A stretch of 63,198 nucleotides of DNA, counting the filler, from Fonticula-like sp. SCN 57-25 (taxonomy: Eukaryota), in the NCBI GenBank assembly GCA_001724245.1. It is 8 parts of 8 records of this genome, joined end to end, with 100 filler letters (N's around TTAATTAATTAA, not from the genome) between each part and the next. Parts side by side here need not be neighbours in the genome. Positions count along the whole stretch, not along the records: positions 8,253 to 17,268 come from MEDX01000358.1; 7 more parts are not named here. One strand, 5' to 3'. This document shows, piece by piece, positions 1 through 24,960 of this stretch. Each line of letters starts with the position of its first letter. The first letter of the stretch is position 1. Both the position numbers and the translations under genes were made by a program. The notes under the pieces were generated by a model. It saw nothing but the letters and a program-made list of their open reading frames with translations. It was not told the DNA's origin and ran no database searches.

Positions 1-496
1 CGATGTCAAGGTCGAGCCGCGCATCGCCGCCTCCTCATCGACATCCTCCCGCAAGCGCCGCAGCGGCAGCGCCCCATCCGCCGCCGCCGCCCCCCTCGCT
101 CCTCTCCCTCTCGACACCTCCTTTATGATCCGCGCTGCCGATCCCACAAGCGCATCCTCCAGCCGCCCGTCATCACCCGGCGCCGCCAACGATGATCTTC
201 TCTCCGACGACGACGGCGGCGAGCAGCCCGACGAGAAGCGCAAGCGCAACAGCGCCGCGAGCGCGCGCTTCCGCCTCAAGAAGAAGCTCAAGGAGCAGCG
301 GCTCGAAGGGCTCGCCAAGGAGATGACCAACAGGGCCGACGCGCTGCAGAGAAAAGTCAGGGGGCTCGAGGCAGAGGTCGCGTACCTCAAGGACCTGCTC
401 ACAATGAAGAGGAGAAGAGAGTTGGAGGACGACGTGCCGAGCGAGCAGAGGCAGCAGATGCAGCAGCAGATGCAGCTCGCTATGCAGCAAATGGCC

Positions 497-8152: not shown

Positions 8153-8252
8153 NNNNNNNNNNNNNNNNNNNNNNNNNNNNNNNNNNNNNNNNNNNNTTAA
8201 TTAATTAANNNNNNNNNNNNNNNNNNNNNNNNNNNNNNNNNNNNNNNNNNNN
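8153..8252. other. Artificial contig linker (N-run + TTAATTAATTAA + N-run); identical linkers at 17269-17368, 24861-24960, 32678-32777, 40248-40347, 48109-48208, 55657-55756
   Basis: Seven identical 100-nt spacers whose core gives stops in all six frames; ORFs break at each one. Confidence 0.98.
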
Positions 8253-8280
8253 AAATTAAAAATAAAAAATAATTTGAAAA

Positions 8281-8400
8281 TTTTGGAGTAATTTTATATG
8301 ATTTTAATTTTTGGGTAAATTTATATGATTTTGGGTAAATTTATATGATTTTGGATAAATTTATATGATTTTAATTTTTGAGTAAATTTATATGATTTTA
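8281..8400. repeat. Tandem repeat, ~5 units of GTAAATTTATATGATTTT(AATTTTT)G (20-27 nt)
   Basis: Direct read near the contig start. Confidence 0.9.
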
Positions 8401-9010
8401 AAAAAATGAAATAATTTGATGTAAAAAAATAAATAGATGTAATATTGATAATGGTTAGCTCATTACTTTTCTCCCCAATTAAATCAAGATAAAACTTGAT
8501 TTGATTAAAAACATATAATTGAACAAACTAATTAGAGAAATTATTGTGTTGATAATTTATACAAAATTGTTAATTATATCAATATATGATTTTTTATACA
8601 AACAGCCATTATATTGAAAAGATTATATGATATGAAGTAATTTAAATTATCAACAAAAGTGATTAATAAACATAAAATATCAAATCGCTATCTTATTATT
8701 TTTTATTAAAATAAAGAAATTAAAAAATAACAAAGGAATTATAAATTAATTAAAGAACAATCAAGACAATATAAACAAAACATAATTTTGATATTAAAAT
8801 TGAGATCCGAACAATCACGCAATAAAATAAAAATAAGAGCAATACACAAGATTCAAATATAATTTGGTAAGTTCATTAACTTTTTTGCACATAAGTAAAT
8901 CAATGCGTGGTATAGGTGAACAATATTAAAATAATATTTAAATTTGCAATAGAGAGAATGATATGAACCTATATCACTTAATATAATTAAATTGAATTCA
9001 ACAAAAACTT

Positions 9011-9528
9011 TGTGAAAAATTGAAATTCTTATTGACTGCTGTGCCCATTCAAAAAGATATATATCAAAACCAATTGGTTATCAAAAATGCTCAGAGTACT
9101 CTGGAGGAAGTCTGGGCGTTGAAGTAAAATTCAACGTTAAAAAAAACGCTACTGATTGGCGGTGATATTTGTTCCTAATCTTTCCTTCTCTTTTGGACCT
9201 TTTTATGATAGTATTTTGCATCCCCTACCACAACTTAATCCGATCATCGGATTAAATTGATCAAGAGTAGGTAAAGCAAAATATTTAAAATATTTAGGAA
9301 GTAATAAGTGATTGGCTTATTTCTAAAAGAAGAGGTCTGAAAAAGACAAAAGGATGAAAAATCAGACACCTGCGACCCAGGGTGTGCATTAATTTGCGGA
9401 GTAGAAGCCACCGTGCTTCACTTGATAGTCTATCGGACCAGACGGTAGAACTAGGCGACCAAACGAAAGTTTGTAGGTTATTTGTGCGAAGTGACACTGT
9501 AACTGAAATAAAAACACTTAGCAAAATT
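9011..9528 (+). ncRNA. Large structured non-coding RNA/leader element, copy 1 (family unknown)
   Basis: Homologous to 16745-17268; multiple helices with compensatory and G-U-consistent substitutions; GAAA tetraloop hairpin 9461-9472; more GC-rich than its flanks. Confidence 0.8.
9016..9023 (+). promoter_or_regulatory. AAAATTGA Mimiviridae-type early promoter motif at the head of repeated element copy 1
   Basis: Exact octamer, conserved at the same position in copy 2. Confidence 0.7.
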
Positions 9529-9542
9529 TTATTACATTCCAG

Positions 9543-9971
9543 ATGGTCGTGGAAGGAGAATTGATTCAATGGAGAATCAACAAGGATCGTATCAAAAAGT
9601 CTTTCGGTCTTTTTTATATGTTGTCCATTCAGCAAGGGTATTCCGATATCACTATCACTGAAGATCAACACATTATTAGACTTGATCCTGATATTGTTTC
9701 CCTCAAGGAAATGAATATCATCTATGGTTACTTTCTAAAAGGTATCATTGAACTGGATGAACATCCTGATATTGACATATATTTGCGTTACCGCTTTTTG
9801 TTGGGCAATATCTTGAAAATGGAAGATTTGAGAAAAGATCCTCTTTTGGAAGAAGAAGAACAATATGAATTGTCAGATTCTGAATTGAATCCTTGGTATG
9901 ATGATTATCCTTATTCTGATGATGATGATAATTGTGGCAATGATTTTGAAGATGATTTTGATGATGATTAG
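9543..9971 (+). CDS. Hypothetical 142-aa viral protein with acidic C-terminus
   Basis: Clean ATG-to-TAG ORF in very AT-rich DNA, directly after the structured element; no recognisable motif. Confidence 0.75.
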   Translation: MVVEGELIQWRINKDRIKKSFGLFYMLSIQQGYSDITITEDQHIIRLDPDIVSLKEMNIIYGYFLKGIIELDEHPDIDIYLRYRFLLGNILKMEDLRKDPLLEEEEQYELSDSELNPWYDDYPYSDDDDNCGNDFEDDFDDD

Positions 9972-10120
9972 AGCTTTCCTATATTGACTTTTTTTATTGG
10001 CGAATATAAAAATCAATAACTTTCATTTATTTATTGGACAATTATAATAAATTCCTTTTATGCTCTCAATTAAATTCAATTAGTTTATTCATAGATAAAA
10101 TAAATCGATCCAATTGTACA

Positions 10121-10206
10121 ATCTTGCATTTTTCGATAAAGTTCAAATTGAATAATAGTCCCTATTTTTTATTATTCAATATGAATTTTATCGAATACAA
10201 CAAGAT
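10121..10206. terminator. Long palindromic hairpin (26-bp core stem 10132-10157/10170-10195), probable 3'-end signal
   Basis: TTCGATAAAGTTCAAATTGAATAATA pairs with TATTATTCAATATGAATTTTATCGAA (one G-U, one mismatch); lies downstream of ORF 9543-9971, consistent with the Mimivirus hairpin rule. Confidence 0.6.
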
Positions 10207-10216
10207 CGTATTACTG

Positions 10217-10312
10217 GAAAAAACTGAAATTTCGACTGTTCTCCCCATTTAAAAAGCTATATATCAATCCAATTGGTTATCAAAAGATGCTCGGAGTACT
10301 CTGGAGTAGCAA
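10217..10312 (+). repeat. Short third copy of the repeated element (head only, promoter changed to AAAACTGA)
   Basis: Aligns to 9014-9106 (CCCATT, CTATATATCAA, CCAATTGGTTATCAAAA, ATGCTCRGAGTACTCTGGAG), then continues TAGCAA like 9519-9524. Confidence 0.85.
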
Positions 10313-10477
10313 GGCTATATTAGGTAGGGATTTTGTTTATGATGGTATTTATGAAACCAATTATATCAAATAAAGGATATTATTTTAATAATAATTTTTC
10401 TTTGTTGTTGTTCTATTAATTATCATTTAATATTAAACTAAAATATTATATAATTAGTTAGCTAATTACTTTTCCCA

Positions 10478-10507
10478 AATTAAATCAAAATTTTAATTGA
10501 TTTAATT
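10478..10507 (-). terminator. Palindromic hairpin just after the stop of the 458-aa ORF
   Basis: AATTAAATCAA / TTGATTTAATT perfect 11-bp stem, 20 nt beyond the stop at 10528. Confidence 0.6.
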
Positions 10508-10527
10508 ATAAAACAGTAAATGAAATA

Positions 10528-11904
10528 TTATTTATTTTTACATATATATGACCTTTTTCTAACAGCATTTATATTTTTGATAATATTCTCATTCACATTA
10601 TAACCATTTTCAATTGTATCATATTTCTTTCTCAATTTTTCTACTTCTAATTCCAAATTCATATCCGAATCTTTAGTTTTTTCTTTTAATATCGAAACAT
10701 TCAGATTTATATATGGTACTGTTTCTAATAATTTTGATATTTTACTTTTGTTCTTTATTTTTGTCATGTTCTTTATCGCTAAATTATATAAATGTAATGT
10801 CGCAAATTTTAATGTTTTACCTCTCATTAAAGATATATATCTTTTTACTTTCTTCTTATCCCTGTATTTAACTTCATATACAAAACCATCAATATTATCA
10901 TAATAATCTTTCGATTTATCTTCAAATAAAGAAAATAATATATCCTTCTGAATCCTCAAAAATATATTCTTTTGTAAATTTTCAGCTTTTTTACCTACAG
11001 TACAATTATTATCAAAATATTCAGTCTGATATAAATAAAATTCATTATTATATCCTTTTTTTACACTGTCGTTCATTAATATGTATAAATCTGTCCTTAA
11101 TAAGGATTCAAATGATATATAACAATTAAATATTTCAATTATATTTAAATTTATGTCGTTTAATTTAATATCATTCAAATTTAATGACTTCTTTTTAGCT
11201 GCTGTTAATAATTTTTTTTTACTTCTTGATGTTATTTGTTCAGTTGTAACATCAATATATTTCTTGTTATCGTATTTGTTAACAAGTTCATATATATAAT
11301 ATTTTGTTTTTTCCATATTATTGGGTATACTATAGCTTATTACTTTTGTCATAATATTATCGATATAATCATGACATTGATATCTTACATTAGGTCCTTT
11401 CTTTCCTTTTTGTAAAAAAAAGTTCTCATAATATAATTTTATATTTTCTAAATCTTTTCTGGAAGCATCCTTGACATATTCTAATAATAAAATATTTGTA
11501 TCCATAGGATCTATAAACATTTTTGAAAAATTATTATCCTCATCCAACAAATATTTGTGCAAATGAATTTTTATCATTTTATAAATACTGCCTGAAGTGT
11601 GACCTGTTCTAAATTTTGAAAAATCCTTTGTGTGTATAATATATATTCTTTTCACTTTGACATCTTCATTCTCATATAATTTGCTTGATTTATTTTTTAA
11701 TTTATTATACTTTTTATTAAATTCCTTCATCTCTTTTATCATTTCTTCATCAATTTGATACTGTATTTTTTTGGCACTACGATAAACATAATAATCATTA
11801 TGTTGTTTCCATTTTTTATCATCTATATCGGGAACAAATTCATCGTCATTATTTAACTCATTATATAATTCATCATACATTTCATCATCTACAGTTTTAC
11901 TCAT
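10528..11904 (-). CDS. Protein with three tandem degenerate GIY-YIG-like nuclease modules
   Basis: RIYIIH...KFRTGHT; YYIYELVNKYDNKKYIDVT...DSVKKGYN; GFVYEVKY...RYIS...YDTIENGYN. Confidence 0.6.
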   Translation of the reverse strand: MSKTVDDEMYDELYNELNNDDEFVPDIDDKKWKQHNDYYVYRSAKKIQYQIDEEMIKEMKEFNKKYNKLKNKSSKLYENEDVKVKRIYIIHTKDFSKFRTGHTSGSIYKMIKIHLHKYLLDEDNNFSKMFIDPMDTNILLLEYVKDASRKDLENIKLYYENFFLQKGKKGPNVRYQCHDYIDNIMTKVISYSIPNNMEKTKYYIYELVNKYDNKKYIDVTTEQITSRSKKKLLTAAKKKSLNLNDIKLNDINLNIIEIFNCYISFESLLRTDLYILMNDSVKKGYNNEFYLYQTEYFDNNCTVGKKAENLQKNIFLRIQKDILFSLFEDKSKDYYDNIDGFVYEVKYRDKKKVKRYISLMRGKTLKFATLHLYNLAIKNMTKIKNKSKISKLLETVPYINLNVSILKEKTKDSDMNLELEVEKLRKKYDTIENGYNVNENIIKNINAVRKRSYICKNK

Positions 11905-11951
11905 TTTATATAATTTATATTATGCATATATATTTATATATCATTATTAAC

Positions 11952-11982
11952 TATTTTGATCAATATTTTATTCATCAAAATA
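11952..11982 (-). terminator. Hairpin immediately after the Mre11-Rad50 stop codon
   Basis: TATTTTGAT...ATCAAAATA stem plus an AAT/ATT extension, 10 nt beyond the stop. Confidence 0.55.
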
Positions 11983-11991
11983 TTAAATATA

Positions 11992-14900
11992 TTATTTATC
12001 GAAAGATATGTAACTTTCTTCATTATTCCTCTCAATGTTTATTTGATTATCAAAATTATTTTTTACATAATCATCGTGTGTTGTAATTAAACACCAATCA
12101 AATGTTGTCCGAATATATTCAAATAATGCTTTTAAATTATCTTTATGTTCTTCGTCACTATGTTTGAATCCTTCATCAATTATGAAAAAATTTGTTTTAA
12201 TATAGTTATTAATAAAACAAAATGATAATCTGAATACCATATTATCTATTCCTCTCTCATGTCCGCTATTTAATAAAACATTATTCTTCTTATTATTGTA
12301 TTCTTTATAAATTCTAAAATTCTGTTTGTCATCATATTCTATTTTTATATTATAGTCTTCTACACAATTTAGTATATTATTAACTGCTAATTCGAGTGTA
12401 GGTATTATTGTTTTTTTTAATATTTCATCATTTATTCCTCCTTTATTAAATATAGATATTATATTATCATAAATTTGTCGCTCTTTTTCATCGTTCTGGA
12501 TTTTATCGTTTAATTGTTTGAAATAATGTATATCATTATCTAGTTTGTATAATTGCAAATTCCTTTGATTTTTCTGATTTATTGTTTCAGCTAAATTACT
12601 CTGATAATCCGTTAATCTTGTGTTATTATTATTTATTCTGTCTTTTAATCTTTCCAACTCTGTATATTTTATTTCAATATCTTTTTGTTTATTGTATTGA
12701 TCTTCTATTAATAATACTTCATTCTCTAAATTTAATTTTAATTTATCAATATTGCTTAATTCTGTATTTAATTCAAATATTTTATTATTGATATTTTCTC
12801 TATTATTTTTTATTTTATCATATTCCATATTAAATTTATTTATTTTACCAGTTGTTACAAACATTTCTTTCTCAACATCAACAATTTCTATCTCTAAATA
12901 TTTATTGAATTGTATATTTTCTCGATTTATATCATATTCATATTTTTTTGAATTCTCATTTTGTAAATCTTTTTCTAATAATAATATTTCCCTTTTAATT
13001 ATCAATAAATCTTTGTTAATTTCATCTATCTTATTTGTTAATAACTCATTTGTCTTTATTTGATCAAGAATCATATAATATTCGTTCATTATTGATCTAT
13101 TTTTTACTATTATTTTATCTAATTTTGTTAATTCTACATTCAAGTCATTCAATTTTTGATTATACTCTTTTATTATCTTTTCTATTGACAATCTTTGTTT
13201 GGTTAATTCATTATTCATACATACCTCACAATTCTTGTTATATTTGTGTTTATCTAATTTACGCAAAATTATTCCATACTCATCTGTTTTTTTTATTATT
13301 TCTTCCTTCTCTCTCTCCAAATTATTTTTAGCTAATATTGATTTATCATATAATTCTACTTTTTTTGTCATATCTACTGTTACTGATTTTAATATTATTT
13401 GTTTCCTTAAAGTTTCAATATTATAAAGCTTATTCTCATGCTTTTTTTTCAAATTGTCAATCTCTATTTCTAAATTAGATATCTTATTATTTAGTATCTT
13501 GATGTCCATGTTATCAAAAACTGCGATTTTTTGGTTCCTTAGTTTTTGTAACATATCTAACAATCTACTTTTTTCTTTTTCCATTAATCCAACTTCATAT
13601 TTATCTTCGTCATAAATCAATATTTCTTCGTTTAAATTATTTAGTTCTGTAGAATAATTCTTTATTTGATTCTCAATATATCGCTTATTTTCTATAATTT
13701 TATTTAATTCTTTTTTTTTAATGTTAAGATCGGTAGATAATATTTTTACTCCTTTGTTCTTACTAATGATATCATTTAATTCCTTATATTTATGATTGTC
13801 TATTACTAATTCTGATTTTAATTGATCAATAATGTTGTTCAATTGATTAATATCTATATCAATACATTTTAATTCATCTACTATTGTTTTCATCTCACTA
13901 TCTATCTTTTCTAAATTATAAATTTTTATGTTGCTCAAGTTCGTATTGATTGCGGAAGATAATTCTAATTTTAAACTGTTCGCTTTTTTTGAAATTTCTC
14001 TAAATACGTCTAATCTGAAAAGCTTATTTAAAAAAACTTTTTTATCAGTCTGCTTCATATCAACAAAATTGTATGGCTGATTTTGTGTCATAATACATGT
14101 TTTTAAATAATCGTCATAATGACCAAATATTTTTAATATTTCTTTATCTGTCTCCATTTTACTATCCTTCGATATATTAACCTCTTTATTTATATCATAT
14201 CTGTATATATTAACATCTTCACTAACTTTTGAACTATTTTTATTCAATTTTGCTTTTCTTACAATCCTATATTTTACTTGATTTAGAGAAATTAATATAT
14301 CTGTTTCATATTTCGTTTTTTTATTATTTATTATATCATTATTTGATACACCCTTAGTATTCTCTCCCCAAATTGATTGTATGATGATTTCAATCATACT
14401 GGATTTACCATATTTATTTGGTGCTAAGAGACCAACTATTTTATTTAAATTTTTGAAATTTATTTGATTATTCTCTCCATATACATATAAGTTATTGAAT
14501 TTTAATAATAATAATTTAAAATTTCTTTCTTTATTATCATTATTTATCTCTATGACATCCAGTATTTTCTCTAAATATTTCTTCATTTTAGATTTCGTAT
14601 CACTATCGTATTTTTTCTGATCTATGTAATTATTTATTAAAGATTTTGTGCTTGATATGCTCTTCAATTGATCAGTTATTATCATTTTGTTTGAATCATA
14701 CAAGTCTTTTTTTATTCCTCTCAAGTCTTCAATCTCTCTTAATTCTATTATATTAAATTTACTCTTGTATTGCTCTATTATTTCCTGTTTTTTTGCTTTA
14801 GTCACATTGTTCCAAATAAATTTTATTCTCACATTCTTCGGTATTTTTTTATTTTCATAAGGATCAGCAATTTTATTTTCATTTACTCTCACTGTTAAAT

Positions 14901-15750
14901 AACAATAATCATTCTCTATTCGAATATATTCTGATTTTTTATTTTCAAGATCCCATTTTATCGTACCATGATCGTGTATGTTCTCATTGTGACTTAATTG
15001 TAATAAACTACTTGGATACGCTGCCGTTTTATTTTTATTTAAGTATTGAAATTTATGTATATCACCTAATAGTAAATAATCTCCTGTTTCAAAATCCTGT
15101 AAATTAAATCTTCCTACTATATATTCCTCATTTCCATTCTCTAATGTTGCTCCATGTATGAATCCATGATACAAACTTATTTTTATTTTTTCAGTATCAA
15201 AATCAAATTTAGTTGTTTCAGCATCATATAAACTTGTTAAACCAAATATTATATTGTTATACTCATAATATTTTTCCTTCAATAGATGTAATTTATTCTT
15301 TGTATTGAAATTTTGTGTTATAATTGGAGTTAATACATCCATTGCTTCCTTATTTGATGCAGGTTTTTCGTGATTACCTAATATAACAATACAATCTGTT
15401 AATAAACATAAATTATAAAAAAAGAGTTTTATCATGGATATTGCTTCGGGTTTTATATTAGTCTTGTTATCAAATATATCTCCGCATATTACAATTATAG
15501 ATTCGTCTAAATTTCCTTGTGATTTTATCGTTTCATATAATCGCTTAAATACAATATCATAGGAATTCCTCGTTTCCTGACAATTACGAATATGAATATC
15601 TGCCATATGATAAATATACCTTATTTTCTTGTTTGTTGATGATTCTAATTTTATTATATTGGGTTTGTAATTAACATACATCGATTTGTTTTTGGTTTTT
15701 TCTTTAATAACCCTAATTTTATTCTTTTTCATGTGAATTTTATCCTTCAT
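11992..15750 (-). CDS. Mre11/SbcD-Rad50/SbcC fusion DNA repair nuclease-ATPase (Mimivirus R555-like architecture)
   Basis: Phosphoesterase motifs HMADIH, GDIFD, GNHE, YHG, GDIH; Walker A APNKYGKSS; Q-loop MTQ; coiled coil with CEVC zinc hook; signature NSGHE; Walker B IIDEGF; H-loop TTHD. Confidence 0.95.
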   Translation of the reverse strand: MKDKIHMKKNKIRVIKEKTKNKSMYVNYKPNIIKLESSTNKKIRYIYHMADIHIRNCQETRNSYDIVFKRLYETIKSQGNLDESIIVICGDIFDNKTNIKPEAISMIKLFFYNLCLLTDCIVILGNHEKPASNKEAMDVLTPIITQNFNTKNKLHLLKEKYYEYNNIIFGLTSLYDAETTKFDFDTEKIKISLYHGFIHGATLENGNEEYIVGRFNLQDFETGDYLLLGDIHKFQYLNKNKTAAYPSSLLQLSHNENIHDHGTIKWDLENKKSEYIRIENDYCYLTVRVNENKIADPYENKKIPKNVRIKFIWNNVTKAKKQEIIEQYKSKFNIIELREIEDLRGIKKDLYDSNKMIITDQLKSISSTKSLINNYIDQKKYDSDTKSKMKKYLEKILDVIEINNDNKERNFKLLLLKFNNLYVYGENNQINFKNLNKIVGLLAPNKYGKSSMIEIIIQSIWGENTKGVSNNDIINNKKTKYETDILISLNQVKYRIVRKAKLNKNSSKVSEDVNIYRYDINKEVNISKDSKMETDKEILKIFGHYDDYLKTCIMTQNQPYNFVDMKQTDKKVFLNKLFRLDVFREISKKANSLKLELSSAINTNLSNIKIYNLEKIDSEMKTIVDELKCIDIDINQLNNIIDQLKSELVIDNHKYKELNDIISKNKGVKILSTDLNIKKKELNKIIENKRYIENQIKNYSTELNNLNEEILIYDEDKYEVGLMEKEKSRLLDMLQKLRNQKIAVFDNMDIKILNNKISNLEIEIDNLKKKHENKLYNIETLRKQIILKSVTVDMTKKVELYDKSILAKNNLEREKEEIIKKTDEYGIILRKLDKHKYNKNCEVCMNNELTKQRLSIEKIIKEYNQKLNDLNVELTKLDKIIVKNRSIMNEYYMILDQIKTNELLTNKIDEINKDLLIIKREILLLEKDLQNENSKKYEYDINRENIQFNKYLEIEIVDVEKEMFVTTGKINKFNMEYDKIKNNRENINNKIFELNTELSNIDKLKLNLENEVLLIEDQYNKQKDIEIKYTELERLKDRINNNNTRLTDYQSNLAETINQKNQRNLQLYKLDNDIHYFKQLNDKIQNDEKERQIYDNIISIFNKGGINDEILKKTIIPTLELAVNNILNCVEDYNIKIEYDDKQNFRIYKEYNNKKNNVLLNSGHERGIDNMVFRLSFCFINNYIKTNFFIIDEGFKHSDEEHKDNLKALFEYIRTTFDWCLITTHDDYVKNNFDNQINIERNNEESYISFDK

Positions 15751-15828
15751 ATAAATTTTATATTTATACTATTTATATGTTTCTATGCTATATATATTAT
15801 TTGCCACCAAATAATATCCAGTTAATTT

Positions 15829-16212
15829 TTACAATTTTATCGAATAAAATGTATCCGTCTCAACTTTTTTCCCATTCCTCTTTGTTACATAATGGGTGCT
15901 GAATATTAATCCTAAATCATTACACATCCCTTTTAAAACAGTTAATAAATAATAATGAATATTGTTTTTTTGATTATATTTTAAGGCGCTCTTATTGAAA
16001 ACTTTATAAATTTCATCTTCCATATTTCTATAATCATCCATATTTTTATCAATTAATAATTCTTCTCTTTTTATATTCTCAAACTCAATTACATCTTGTA
16101 TCGTATTTTTATTTATATTCTTCAATATCTTATTTATTAATTTTAATAATATATCATATTTTTTATTGACCTTTTTCTTTGCGATATTTTCTAAAATAGA
16201 AATAGTTGTCAT
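15829..16212 (-). CDS. Hypothetical 127-aa viral protein
   Basis: Intact ORF, co-oriented with Mre11-Rad50, AAAATTGA ~43 nt upstream. Confidence 0.75.
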   Translation of the reverse strand: MTTISILENIAKKKVNKKYDILLKLINKILKNINKNTIQDVIEFENIKREELLIDKNMDDYRNMEDEIYKVFNKSALKYNQKNNIHYYLLTVLKGMCNDLGLIFSTHYVTKRNGKKVETDTFYSIKL

Positions 16213-16254
16213 TGCTACTTAAATAATATAACTTTGAATCATAATTTATATTTA

Positions 16255-16262
16255 TCAATTTT
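16255..16262 (-). promoter_or_regulatory. AAAATTGA early promoter motif for the 127-aa ORF
   Basis: TCAATTTT on the + strand, ~43 nt upstream of the ATG at 16212. Confidence 0.7.
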
Positions 16263-16452
16263 TTATTGTCACCTTATTACTTTTCCAATTTTGATTAAAT
16301 CTATTTTAATCAAAATCATTCCATATAATTGTTCATTATCTTGTTGAACTCGAGAAATTATATGATTTATCCATTATTTATATAATTTATATTAATCCAT
16401 TTTTATCTATATTTTAGATTATTTGAAATTGATTACCTTATTACTTTCCACG

Positions 16453-16685
16453 AACATAATAAAGCATAGCTGTAATTAGGTTTTCAGATTTTACTGGTTT
16501 CTGCTACTGATATATATGTTGATTAATATTGTTGTTCCAAATATGAAAACATAATAAAATGTAGCTGTAATTAGGTTCTCAGATTTTACTGGTTTATGCT
16601 ATTGATATATATATGTTGATTAATATTGTTGTTCCAAATATGATTATATTTCAACAATATTGATCAACATATATTACAATAGCAT
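16453..16685. repeat. 95-nt direct tandem duplication (16453-16547, 16548-16644) plus an inverted partial copy forming a long hairpin (16596-16685)
   Basis: TAGCTGTAATTAGGTTYTCAGATTTTACTGGTTT...GTTGATTAATATTGTTGTTCCAAATATGA occurs twice; CAACAATATTGATCAACATATA...CAATAGCAT is the reverse complement of part of the unit. Confidence 0.9.
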
Positions 16686-16744
16686 GGTTCTTAAATAAAA
16701 TTGTTCTATTCAATATAATTATATCAAATACAAGCAGAATTTCA

Positions 16745-17268
16745 TGTGAAAAATTGAAATTTCTATTGACTGCTTTCCCCATTCAAAAAGCTATATATCA
16801 AAACCAATTGGTTATCAAAAATGCTCAGAGTACTCTGGAGGAAGTCTGAGCGTTGAAGTTAAATTCAACGTTAAAAAAAACGCTACTGATTGGCGGTGAT
16901 ATTTGTTCCGAATCTCTCTTCTTCTTTGAACCTTTATATGATAATACAATGCATCCCCTACCACAGTTTAAGCTAGTTACTGTATAGTAATCTTAATCTG
17001 ATCAAGAGTAGGTAAAGTAAAGTATTTAAAGTATAAAGGAAGTAATAAGTGTTTGGCTTATTTTCAAAGAAAAAGTTTGTGGAAGACAAAAGGATGAAAA
17101 ATCAGACACCTGCGACCCAGGGTGTGCATTAACTTGCGGAGTAGAAGCCACCGCGCTTCACTTGATAGGCTATCGGACCAGACGGTAGAACTAGGCGACC
17201 AAACGAAAGTTTGTAGGTTATTTGTGCGAAGTGACACTGTAACTGAAATAAAAACACTTAGCAAAATT
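16745..17268 (+). ncRNA. Large structured non-coding RNA/leader element, copy 2 (runs to the contig end)
   Basis: Homologous to 9011-9528, with covarying helices. Confidence 0.8.
16750..16757 (+). promoter_or_regulatory. AAAATTGA early promoter motif at the head of repeated element copy 2
   Basis: Exact octamer, same context as 9016-9023. Confidence 0.7.
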
Positions 17269-17368
17269 NNNNNNNNNNNNNNNNNNNNNNNNNNNNNNNN
17301 NNNNNNNNNNNNTTAATTAATTAANNNNNNNNNNNNNNNNNNNNNNNNNNNNNNNNNNNNNNNNNNNN

Positions 17369-24860: not shown

Positions 24861-24960
24861 NNNNNNNNNNNNNNNNNNNNNNNNNNNNNNNNNNNNNNNN
24901 NNNNTTAATTAATTAANNNNNNNNNNNNNNNNNNNNNNNNNNNNNNNNNNNNNNNNNNNN

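Follow-up and report, generated by a model that had tools for sequence, protein, structure and literature searches.

The window analysed here, a stretch of 63,198 nucleotides, is a chain of contigs of 7.5-9 kb that is cut by seven linkers of the form N44-TTAATTAATTAA-N44. One of these contigs, at positions 8253-17268, differs from the others in base composition: in bins of 2 kb its GC content was 21-36%, versus 44-66% in the remaining contigs of the window, and its neighbors across the linkers are GC-rich and eukaryote-like. It encodes an Mre11/Rad50-type fusion protein, for which 504 relatives were found at E ≤ 1e-3 (8000 candidates scored). The best of these (62% identity) is encoded on a 1.3-Mb contig, the named ones are the “DNA repair protein” of moumouvirus and that of Edafosvirus, and 80 giant-virus loci in IMG/VR carry relatives at 23-36% identity. 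The word AAAATTGA, an early-promoter word of mimivirus that has been described as its canonical promoter (PMC5829246), occurred nine times in the window versus 3.75 expected, with seven occurrences in the 9-kb AT-rich contig and two in the other 54 kb; one of them lies 43 nt 5′ of the ATG of ORF127. Based on the relatives of the fusion protein, the IMG/VR relatives and the enrichment of AAAATTGA, the contig is, judged by its content, viral and Mimiviridae-like. A capsid or polymerase gene is absent from the 9-kb contig, a gene and Pfam survey of it detected no transposase, and no tRNA or tmRNA was found. The features of the contig are listed below, with the strand where one applies.

8253-17268: AT-rich contig of a Mimiviridae-like giant virus (GC bins, N runs, and relatives of the Mre11/Rad50 fusion in moumouvirus and Edafosvirus).
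8972-9106, plus strand: head copy 1, with AAAATTGA at 9016-9023, the palindromes CCAATTGG at 9070-9077 and AGAGTACTCT at 9093-9102, and an ATG at 9087.
9107-9518, plus strand: core copy 1, a predicted structured RNA of 412 nt in the register of an earlier note, conserved at its 5′ end as far as ~9189 and in its 3′ domain, and variable between them (folding, consensus pairs).
9191-9292, plus strand: optional hairpin arm of 102 nt, skipped by a joint from 9190 to 9293 in some metagenome contigs.
9355-9512, plus strand: 3′ domain, for which six hairpins are predicted, a GAAA loop capping one of them; copies 1 and 2 are 99% alike here; covariance model R1.
9519-9534, plus strand: “tail” of copy 1, TAGCAA plus spacer, 13 nt shorter than in other assemblies (sequence comparison).
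9543-9971, plus strand: ORF142, a small protein with an acidic C-terminus; the element is always upstream of it in other assemblies.
10109-10218: long AT-rich palindrome with arms of 49 nt (80% complementarity) that extends into the first part of head copy 3 and probably forms a hairpin at which transcripts end.
10170-10306, plus strand: head copy 3, in which AAAACTGA replaces AAAATTGA, with an ATG at 10287 and its end at CTGGAG.
10307-10322, plus strand: TAGCAA and 10 more bases after head copy 3, compared below with 9519-9534; only six bases of the match are robust.
10528-11904, minus strand: ORF458, a GIY-YIG (I-TevI/SegE-like) endonuclease-like protein, convergent with head copy 3 (relatives, profile).
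11992-15750, minus strand: Mre11/Rad50-type fusion, “DNA repair protein” of Mimiviridae, 1252 aa (protein relatives).
16707-16840, plus strand: head copy 2, with AAAATTGA at 16750-16757 (sequence comparison).
16841-17268, plus strand: core copy 2 with 10 nt of the tail that follows, where the contig ends; another assembly (L011) continues it.

The earlier note on this DNA had described a head sequence in three copies, the third of which lacks the structured core that follows the other two. Our census of the viral contig agrees with this description, with two full copies of head plus core (8972-9528 and 16707-17268) and one head alone (10170-10306). The head 17-mer CCAATTGGTTATCAAAA had three exact matches in the window versus 0.17 expected, a number that was reached in 0 of 100 shuffles, and the pairwise likeness ranged from 76.8% (8972-9106 against 10170-10306, 142 columns) through 82.1% (16707-16840 against 10173-10306, 140 columns) to 88.4% for the full copies (8980-9528 against 16712-17268, 559 columns). 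Each full head carries an ATG 64 nt downstream of AAAATTGA, together with the two DNA palindromes CCAATTGG and AGAGTACTCT; the ATG is kept in copy 3. Copy 3 is more like the other heads in its last 45 nt (42 of 47 columns alike) than further upstream (67 of 96), and the likeness ends at position 10306, equivalent to 9106, with CTGGAG, after which copy 3 reads TAGCAA as had been reported. The stretch that it lacks, 9107-9518, likewise has the claimed length of 412 nt. A frame is open for only 28 codons 3′ of head copy 3, tblastn found no remnants of ORF142 there, and the region was not more structured than shuffled sequences when folded (z = +0.7 and +1.0). The third copy is a genuine core-less head, comprising the first ~135 bases of the element.

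The core itself is predicted to fold extensively. The z-scores of the minimum free energy were −4.6 (9034-9540) and −4.5 (9082-9524) on the plus strand and −2.9 on the minus strand. In the alignment of the two full copies, four of the 136 consensus pairs were changed on both sides, seven were changed on one side and none was broken, a result favored by the derivation of the consensus structure from the same two sequences; slid controls, in which the partners were moved by 1-3 columns, gave no double changes. The tip of the long middle hairpin is wholly different in copies 1 and 2, with pairing kept in both. Because a 10-bp helix (9087-9096 with 9111-9119, z = −2.6) spans the proposed junction between head and core, the head is probably part of the fold. 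These folding models support a discrete, structured RNA module on the plus strand. Rfam gave no hit at gathering score in the whole window and none at E ≤ 10 in the 9-kb contig or in a segment of 571 nt (8990-9560), and the group I covariance model RF00028 had no match at gathering score or at E ≤ 10. The search for relatives returned little: five exact patterns from the core or the head-core junction had no match in viral contigs, and the head 17-mer had 10 chance matches, alike only in the 17-23-mer itself. A 19-mer search found 11 loci in metagenome contigs, one of which (L011) was real, and five in genome contigs, all by chance. Model R1 detected only the two window copies when run against 1.3 Mb of the 80 IMG/VR loci around the distant relatives of the Rad50 fusion.

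ORF142, downstream of core copy 1, belongs to no Pfam family, and all its relatives are near-identical (92-96% identity, two clusters, nine members). L011, an independent metagenome contig that is 100% identical to 14674-17268, runs into ORF142: it continues copy 2 with TAGCAAAATT, then with 13 further bases, and then with the same ORF142 start. Read-through from the 3′ domain was also found in every one of the seven gene calls, out of nine, that reach upstream of the ATG of ORF142. Two types of 3′ domain, DSL (copy-1-type) and DRL (copy-2-type), both occur upstream of ORF142, and the copy before ORF142 is copy 1 in the window and copy 2 in L011; if ORF142 were present at two loci, one behind each copy, both assemblies and the contig end at 17268 would be accounted for. 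The distance between the last predicted helix and the ATG at 9543 is 24 nt (37 nt in the form with 13 more bases), and no palindrome lies between them, while AT-rich palindromes lie 3′ of ORF142 at ~9990-10030 and 10109-10218. According to a hairpin rule quoted in PMC3946568, mimivirus transcripts end at such palindromes. Since there is no palindrome before ORF142 and there are palindromes after it, the promoter, the folded RNA and ORF142 look like one transcription unit, judged by their layout.

The contig or a part of it is present in 20 public sequencing runs, all of DNA, from bioreactor, wastewater or sludge metagenomes of 14 studies, and nine of these runs contain at least half of its words. 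Logan contigs of four runs were aligned to 8420-10700 at 88% likeness. Run X1 gave no aligned contig despite containing 0.87 of the contig's words, a zero that may be false. The depths in the other runs were as follows.

X2: upstream flank, 4.1; head / 5′ core (two bins), 29.4 / 29.3; 3′ domain, about 30; ORF142, 5.7.
X6: upstream flank, 4-18; head / 5′ core (two bins), 363.5 / 361.3; 3′ domain, 168-208; ORF142, 56.5.
X10: upstream flank, 0; head / 5′ core (two bins), 11.5 / 14.6; 3′ domain, about 8; ORF142, 5.6.

The element is a multicopy family. Because the depth of the head equals that of the core, core-less heads are not common and the head travels with the core. The depth was low over the middle (9190-9343), indicating that this part varies, and since one contig in each of three runs skips 9191-9292, the element can do without this arm. 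Four changes, 9399G>A, 9400A>G, 9415G>A and 9422T>C, were present together in a single X10 contig. Position 9400 is paired with 9422 in the consensus fold, where an A-U pair is thus replaced by G-C, and G9399-U9423 becomes A-U. The common change 9429T>G falls on a predicted bulge. A group I P7 (9364-9367 with 9428-9431), drawn by eye from its resemblance to the R and S elements that are classical for these introns, was rejected, as 9429T>G would break it and yet fits the bulge of a 9-bp hairpin. In one X10 contig, likeness of at least 88% begins only at 9082, 5 nt before the ATG, and the best-conserved unit may begin at ~9082 and not at the promoter. The earlier note had named short copies breaking at variable positions as a sign against precise excision. 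Members of the family part from the window at 9038, 9082, 9114, 9132, 9163, 9179, 9455 and 9463; these points of divergence are many, but they lie within the family and not in short copies, which weakens the idea of a precise event and does not settle it. No contig in the four runs joins 9106 to 9519.

These data also bear on whether the core-less junction, or the order of the copies, arose by a wrong path through the repeat during metagenome assembly. Such an artefact would be in line with the disagreement between the window and L011 about the copy that precedes ORF142, with the Logan contigs that break inside heads (at 9087/9088 and 10280-10285), and with the finding that no listed Logan contig piece spans 10306. 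However, the path from head 3 into TAGCAAGG needs reads with that junction, depth was present in the bin 10268-10344 in three runs, two ORF142 loci explain both assemblies, and both DSL- and DRL-type 3′ domains occur before ORF142. We therefore regard an assembly artefact as very improbable.

A further question is whether the 3′ domain is simply coding, as an N-terminal extension of ORF142 for which the core is kept. The ORF142 frame is open for 198 nt upstream in the form with 13 more bases, P0121, P0122 and cluster members are called as proteins of 172-207 aa with GTG starts, and three of seven variable sites are synonymous in the extension frame. Nevertheless, the extension contains no ATG in frame, the paired changes at 9400 and 9422 would replace S by G and L by P in a protein while they keep the base pair in the RNA, and in X2 the depth over the 3′ domain is 5-7 times that over ORF142, so the GTG-start extension is read here as an over-extension. 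Additionally, no Pfam family was found, a peptide search with the 60-aa frame through the 3′ domain was without candidate, and a 13-nt deletion breaks the frame in the window. Of all the readings considered, this one seems to us the hardest to credit.

The precision that had been claimed for the absence of the core depends on what follows copy 3. TAGCAA is found at 9519 (copy 1), at 17259 (copy 2) and after 10306 (copy 3), and nowhere else in the 9-kb contig, so this part of the proposed tail match holds. The remainder of the 16 nt does not: the identity between copies 3 and 1 is 12 of 16 (the text of the earlier note implies 11), and its TATTA part depends on the 13-nt deletion, which is particular to window copy 1. 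The 13 extra bases are present in L011 and in the seven of nine gene calls that reach upstream of the ORF start, and TAGCAA alone then matches. Because the likeness ends at TAGCAA and the 16-nt identity depends on the deletion, the tail match is worth little. Block shuffles had TAGCAA at some point in the 600 nt after the head in 19% of cases, and at most 15 nt from offset 412 in 1.4% of them. Past 10306, a stretch of 221 nt was compared with the core (p = 0.18 and 0.70) and with the tail (p = 0.35 and 0.41), with 300 shuffles each, and resembled neither significantly. At an empty site paired with a filled one, likeness should resume past the junction; here, 42 of 47 columns were alike before it and 6 nt after it. 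In an abundant related strain in X6, the loose end before 9529 reads CACTTAC and keeps only the TA, without TAGCAA. The two edges of the missing stretch also differ in kind. The 5′ edge of the core came from copy 3 itself, and an exact absence is true by construction on this side; the 3′ side consists of six bases with no likeness beyond them. The 3′ end of the element is not settable from copies 1 and 2, since copy 2 is cut by the contig end and L011 continues into ORF142. In terms of sequence, precise removal or non-insertion of the folded core rests on a six-base match and is unproven.

The junctions had been described as canonical neither for group I introns nor for GT-AG introns. The first statement is correct at CTGGAG|TAGCAA, where the exon would end in G (9106) and the core in U (9518). 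The second does not hold, because a shift of 3 nt gives a register with GT at 9110 and AG at 9520-9521, which is also 412 nt long and fits copy 3 with three substitutions. This register, 9110-9521, reads GT..AG in copies 1 and 2, but the loose end of the X6 strain is without the AG, and the high conservation, fold and copy number of the core are unlike spliceosomal introns. A third register, U9091|...G9521|, fits copy 3 about as well as these two. For a group I-type junction, with U closing the exon and G closing the intron, U9088 could also be combined with G9521, in both cases next to a P1-like helix of 10 bp. No pairing between the two junctions in the form of a bulge-helix-bulge, the tRNA-type splice motif, was seen by eye.

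ORF458, the end of which lies 221 nt past the break of copy 3, had 67 relatives at E ≤ 1e-3 among cluster representatives. By itself it matched no Pfam family at E ≤ 0.01; among 35 relatives aligned out of the 67, picked from the longer and better matches, SegE_GIY-YIG (PF19835) was found in 14 (best 1.8e-7) and GIY-YIG (PF01541) in six (best 6.2e-9). The profile of the family matched the I-TevI catalytic domain (PDB 1MK0, E 1.3e-5; 1LN0, E 3.1e-5), and GIY-YIG leads for ORF458 in a protein atlas scored 0.89. By these comparisons ORF458 qualifies as a GIY-YIG endonuclease-like protein, akin in profile and in the domains of its relatives to the I-TevI and Seg enzymes of phage T4. The Seg genes are free-standing between other genes, as ORF458 is. 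Unlike the T4 enzymes, ORF458, a putative endonuclease, itself passes no Pfam threshold. A putative homing-type endonuclease beside a broken repeat would fit a recombination scar and a homing system alike, and does not separate them.

Several of these observations would suit an intron. Genes of the ORF142 type could carry the core as an intron, either among their first codons or in their 5′ leader. It would be removed from the RNA by itself or with viral help and be copied between loci at the DNA level, perhaps aided in trans by a GIY-YIG enzyme; copy 3 would then be an intron-less, decayed paralogue that shows the head, the ATG, six shared codons and SSK. The conserved 5′ and 3′ parts, the variable and partly dispensable arm (the 102-nt skip), the many copies, the size of ~412-433 nt and the GIY-YIG-like gene adjoining copy 3 all agree with this, as do published descriptions of ORF-less intron copies (PMC5871332) and of unclassifiable introns of ~430 nt (PMC2688009) in this virus lineage, and of intron-like sequences in intergenic regions of tupanviruses (PMC5829246). 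In the form with 13 more bases, ATG 9087 falls into the frame of ORF142 in each of the three registers, free of stops to the end of L011; the spliced frame is, however, broken in window copy 1, an in-frame position by chance is one in three, and the open spacer is a weak argument, since the ORF142 frame is open for 198 nt upstream anyway. Copy 3 would start with MLGVLWSSK, compared with MLRVLWSSK for the spliced copies, but likeness to a second exon is absent after copy 3. TAGCAA lies at the structural 3′ edge (p = 0.014), yet the X6 strain keeps neither G9521 (C in its loose end) nor TAGCAA. The helix 9087-9096/9111-9119 is P1-like and has a U-G pair at 9088-9118; in copy 2, U-A stands in place of the wobble U9091-G9115 of the P1 that would be most like group I. 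Furthermore, no group I or II match was obtained even at E ≤ 10 on the 571 nt, the junction given in the earlier note has G before the core and U at its end instead of U and G, and the equal depths of head and core make empty heads uncommon. Weighing both sides, we consider an intron unlikely, although it is the alternative that deserves the most attention. We are more skeptical of a bolder version, in which the core represents a so far undescribed giant-virus class of introns or of mobile, intron-like RNAs: ~430 nt long, with no group I or II signature, with a dispensable middle arm and a mini-exon before it, and dispersed by means that include a free-standing GIY-YIG enzyme, copy 3 being its precise absence.

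The core could instead be a mobile insertion at the DNA level, either a non-autonomous transposon or a homing cassette moved by ORF458, that entered a palindrome-bearing head, with copy 3 as the unoccupied or excised site. The earlier note had seen no clear terminal inverted repeats or target-site duplication, and in the sequence we also read no inverted repeats at the two ends of the core and no duplication at CTGGAG|..|TAGCAA. However, an alternative unit of 433 nt (9089-9521) is flanked by CAAAAAT (9082-9088) and CAAAATT (9522-9528), a direct match of six in seven bases resembling a 7-bp duplication, and the likeness of one X10 contig begins at 9082. The mosaic breakpoints of the multicopy family, the two DNA palindromes just 5′ of the junction, the GIY-YIG-like ORF458 next door, and the existence of elements that are both transposon and intron, as described in PMC10690162, fit a mobile insertion as well. 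Against it, the contig contains no transposase, the helix across the junction and the equal depths mark head and core as one unit, and no contig in the four runs has the flanks of copy 1 without the core, although contigs can miss rare forms. We regard a mobile insertion as improbable. The original suggestion of an insertion or intron-like RNA therefore stands in part: it is in keeping with a discrete, structured, multicopy module, with the neighboring ORF458 and with the frame in the form with 13 more bases, but not with the findings on precision, on contigs with an empty junction, on TAGCAA in X6 and on the frame in copy 1.

Comparison with known systems leads to similar partial parallels. 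In the account of Bodo saltans virus, ORF-less “offspring” group I introns that are 94% alike were found through gene disruption and folding and confirmed by RT-PCR, and GIY-YIG or HNH endonucleases elsewhere in the genome were thought to act in trans (PMC5871332). The present element is like these in being carried, as several near-identical ORF-less structured RNAs of a few hundred nucleotides, by a Mimiviridae-type virus. In contrast, the introns described there interrupt RNA polymerase genes and their splicing was shown (PMC5871332), whereas the copies here lie behind a promoter and a start of 6-7 codons, upstream of a small ORF, and match no group I model in Rfam. For L425, the capsid gene of mimivirus, a first exon of 18 codons and an intron of 427 bp are reported, the latter matching neither group I nor group II (PMC2688009). 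The 412-433-nt core resembles this intron in size and in its lack of a family match, a likeness by size and published description only; the gene is different, and splicing of L425 was proven by cDNA (PMC2688009). Copies of an “18S rRNA intronic region” are described in tupanviruses and mimiviruses, one or two per genome, some of them intergenic and highly expressed and some beside an intron endonuclease, with their function given as unknown; klosneuviruses are stated to have none (PMC5829246, PMC8387033). These are likewise intron-like structured sequences, but by the published description, to which our comparison is confined, their identification relied on BLAST likeness to group I introns of 18S rDNA, whereas the core here is without any Rfam hit (PMC5829246, PMC8387033). 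IStrons, transposon-encoded group I introns of the IS607 type, combine precise DNA insertion with precise RNA removal, the kind of element that the earlier note had proposed (PMC10690162). They are a conceptual parallel only, as no transposase, TnpB/Fanzor or group I signature was found here. A guide RNA of the Fanzor/TnpB type was considered and seems unlikely, as the contig has no such gene and the 3′ flank varies in a spacer-like, not a guide-like, manner.

The reading that we tentatively favor, without great confidence, is that promoter, head and core form a cassette that is transcribed as a structured leader, and that copy 3 is a core-less relic of it. The repeated unit would be the whole head plus core and not the core alone: the early promoter AAAATTGA would come first, then a short conserved 5′ stretch that contains both palindromes and the ATG, and last a folded RNA of ~440-480 nt. 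We infer that plus-strand transcription passes through the cassette into ORF142, with no hairpin terminator between them; because the transcript would run on into ORF142 without a terminator, the folded RNA would be the 5′ leader of the ORF142 message, and it may act in cis on downstream expression. Other copies presumably precede other loci, with duplication or recombination as the likely routes of dispersal in the viral genome. Of the cassette, copy 3 would have retained the promoter and ~25 nt at the start of the conserved RNA; the rest would have been lost or never present, and no gene follows. Its break could stem from double-strand breaks, and their repair, due to the GIY-YIG-like ORF458. 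TAGCAA after the break would be due to chance, or would be a remnant of a 4-bp helix (UGCU 9088-9091 with AGCA 9520-9523) that closes the RNA. Within this reading, the copies, the promoter word, the signal of structure, the multicopy state and the link with ORF142 were observed, and transcription, a role as leader and the origin of copy 3 are interpretation.

Some observations stand against a leader. TAGCAA sits where the conserved structured domain ends, which has a 1.4% chance if that end is taken as independently known, and the better-kept last 45 nt of the copy 3 head are as expected for a conserved target or an exon edge. A fold of 450 nt, an upstream ATG and an upstream frame of 11 codons should hinder translation by scanning, with which an RNA that is removed fits more easily; removal of the core also puts ATG 9087 in frame with ORF142 in the form with 13 more bases. 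We know of no function for such a leader in giant viruses.

Under any of these readings, the RNA family without an Rfam match is the more interesting object: it has its own promoter, a clear structure signal, many copies and a fixed place before one gene, and the virus that carries it turns up repeatedly in metagenomes of wastewater and sludge (14 studies). To our knowledge, structured non-coding RNAs have hardly been studied in giant viruses. The published ones are introns or intron-like pieces, the role of which outside genes is given as unknown (PMC5829246). A precise empty allele, if established, would be evidence of mobility. If the core is spliced, it would be a second unclassifiable intron type in Mimiviridae and a tractable case of splicing by cytoplasmic viruses. 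If it is retained, it would be, as far as the literature searched shows, the first long structured leader described for giant viruses.

Between copy 1 of the element (the full head with its folded RNA core) and ORF142, the small acidic protein gene downstream, 13 nt (CAATCTGTTGGAA) are missing from the window at 9528/9529. These 13 nt are present at 276–288 (minus strand) in L011, an independent metagenome contig, and in 7 of the 9 gene calls of other assemblies, namely the 7 that reach upstream. The spacer with the 13 nt contains AAAATTCA, which is the promoter word with one mismatch, 33 nt upstream of the ATG. The repeats in and around the element copies and the joints of the window are as follows.

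Repeats and joints in the window
8271–8403: five 21-nt units (TAAATTTATATGATTTT...), spacing 20 and 27 nt
8441–8523 and 10442–10524: repeated 83–86-nt stretch with an internal palindrome, 79% identity
9082–9088 (CAAAAAT) and 9522–9528 (CAAAATT): flanks of the 433-nt unit 9089–9521, resembling a 7-bp direct repeat
10109–10218: palindrome, arms 49 nt, 80% complementary
16453–16685: tandem pair of ~95-nt units (91.7% alike) plus an inverted partial copy (83%)
8153–8252, 17269–17368, 24861–24960 and four others: contig joints, N44-TTAATTAATTAA-N44 linkers

In one contig of the metagenome run X10, likeness to the window starts exactly at 9082, the first base of the CAAAAAT flank; the match between the two flanks could be chance in AT-rich DNA. 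The palindrome at 10109–10218 gave a sub-threshold Rfam match to the microRNA precursor MIR6274 (35.8 bits against a gathering threshold of 80), but probably represents a transcript end of the hairpin type and not a microRNA. Because read depth over it is high in the run X6 (∼194), this palindrome is also repeated. The 83–86-nt stretch lies upstream of copy 1 and directly past the stop of ORF458, and looks like a terminator hairpin common to both sites. The array at 16453–16685 is directly upstream of head copy 2. The 21-nt array forms the start of the viral contig, where it might be the sign of a genome end or of a repeat linked to replication.

In the family of ORF458 (10528–11904, minus strand), the atlas structure rows show two occurrences of the GIY-YIG-like region (residues ∼193–293 and ∼337–447), suggesting that a nuclease-like domain is present in tandem or has been duplicated.

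The window is composed of separate, linker-joined contigs, one of them AT-rich and giant-virus-like amid GC-rich eukaryote-like ones. The association with the eukaryote is therefore one of binning, which need not mean integration; contigs binned together in this way could represent a host–virus pair or mere co-abundance.
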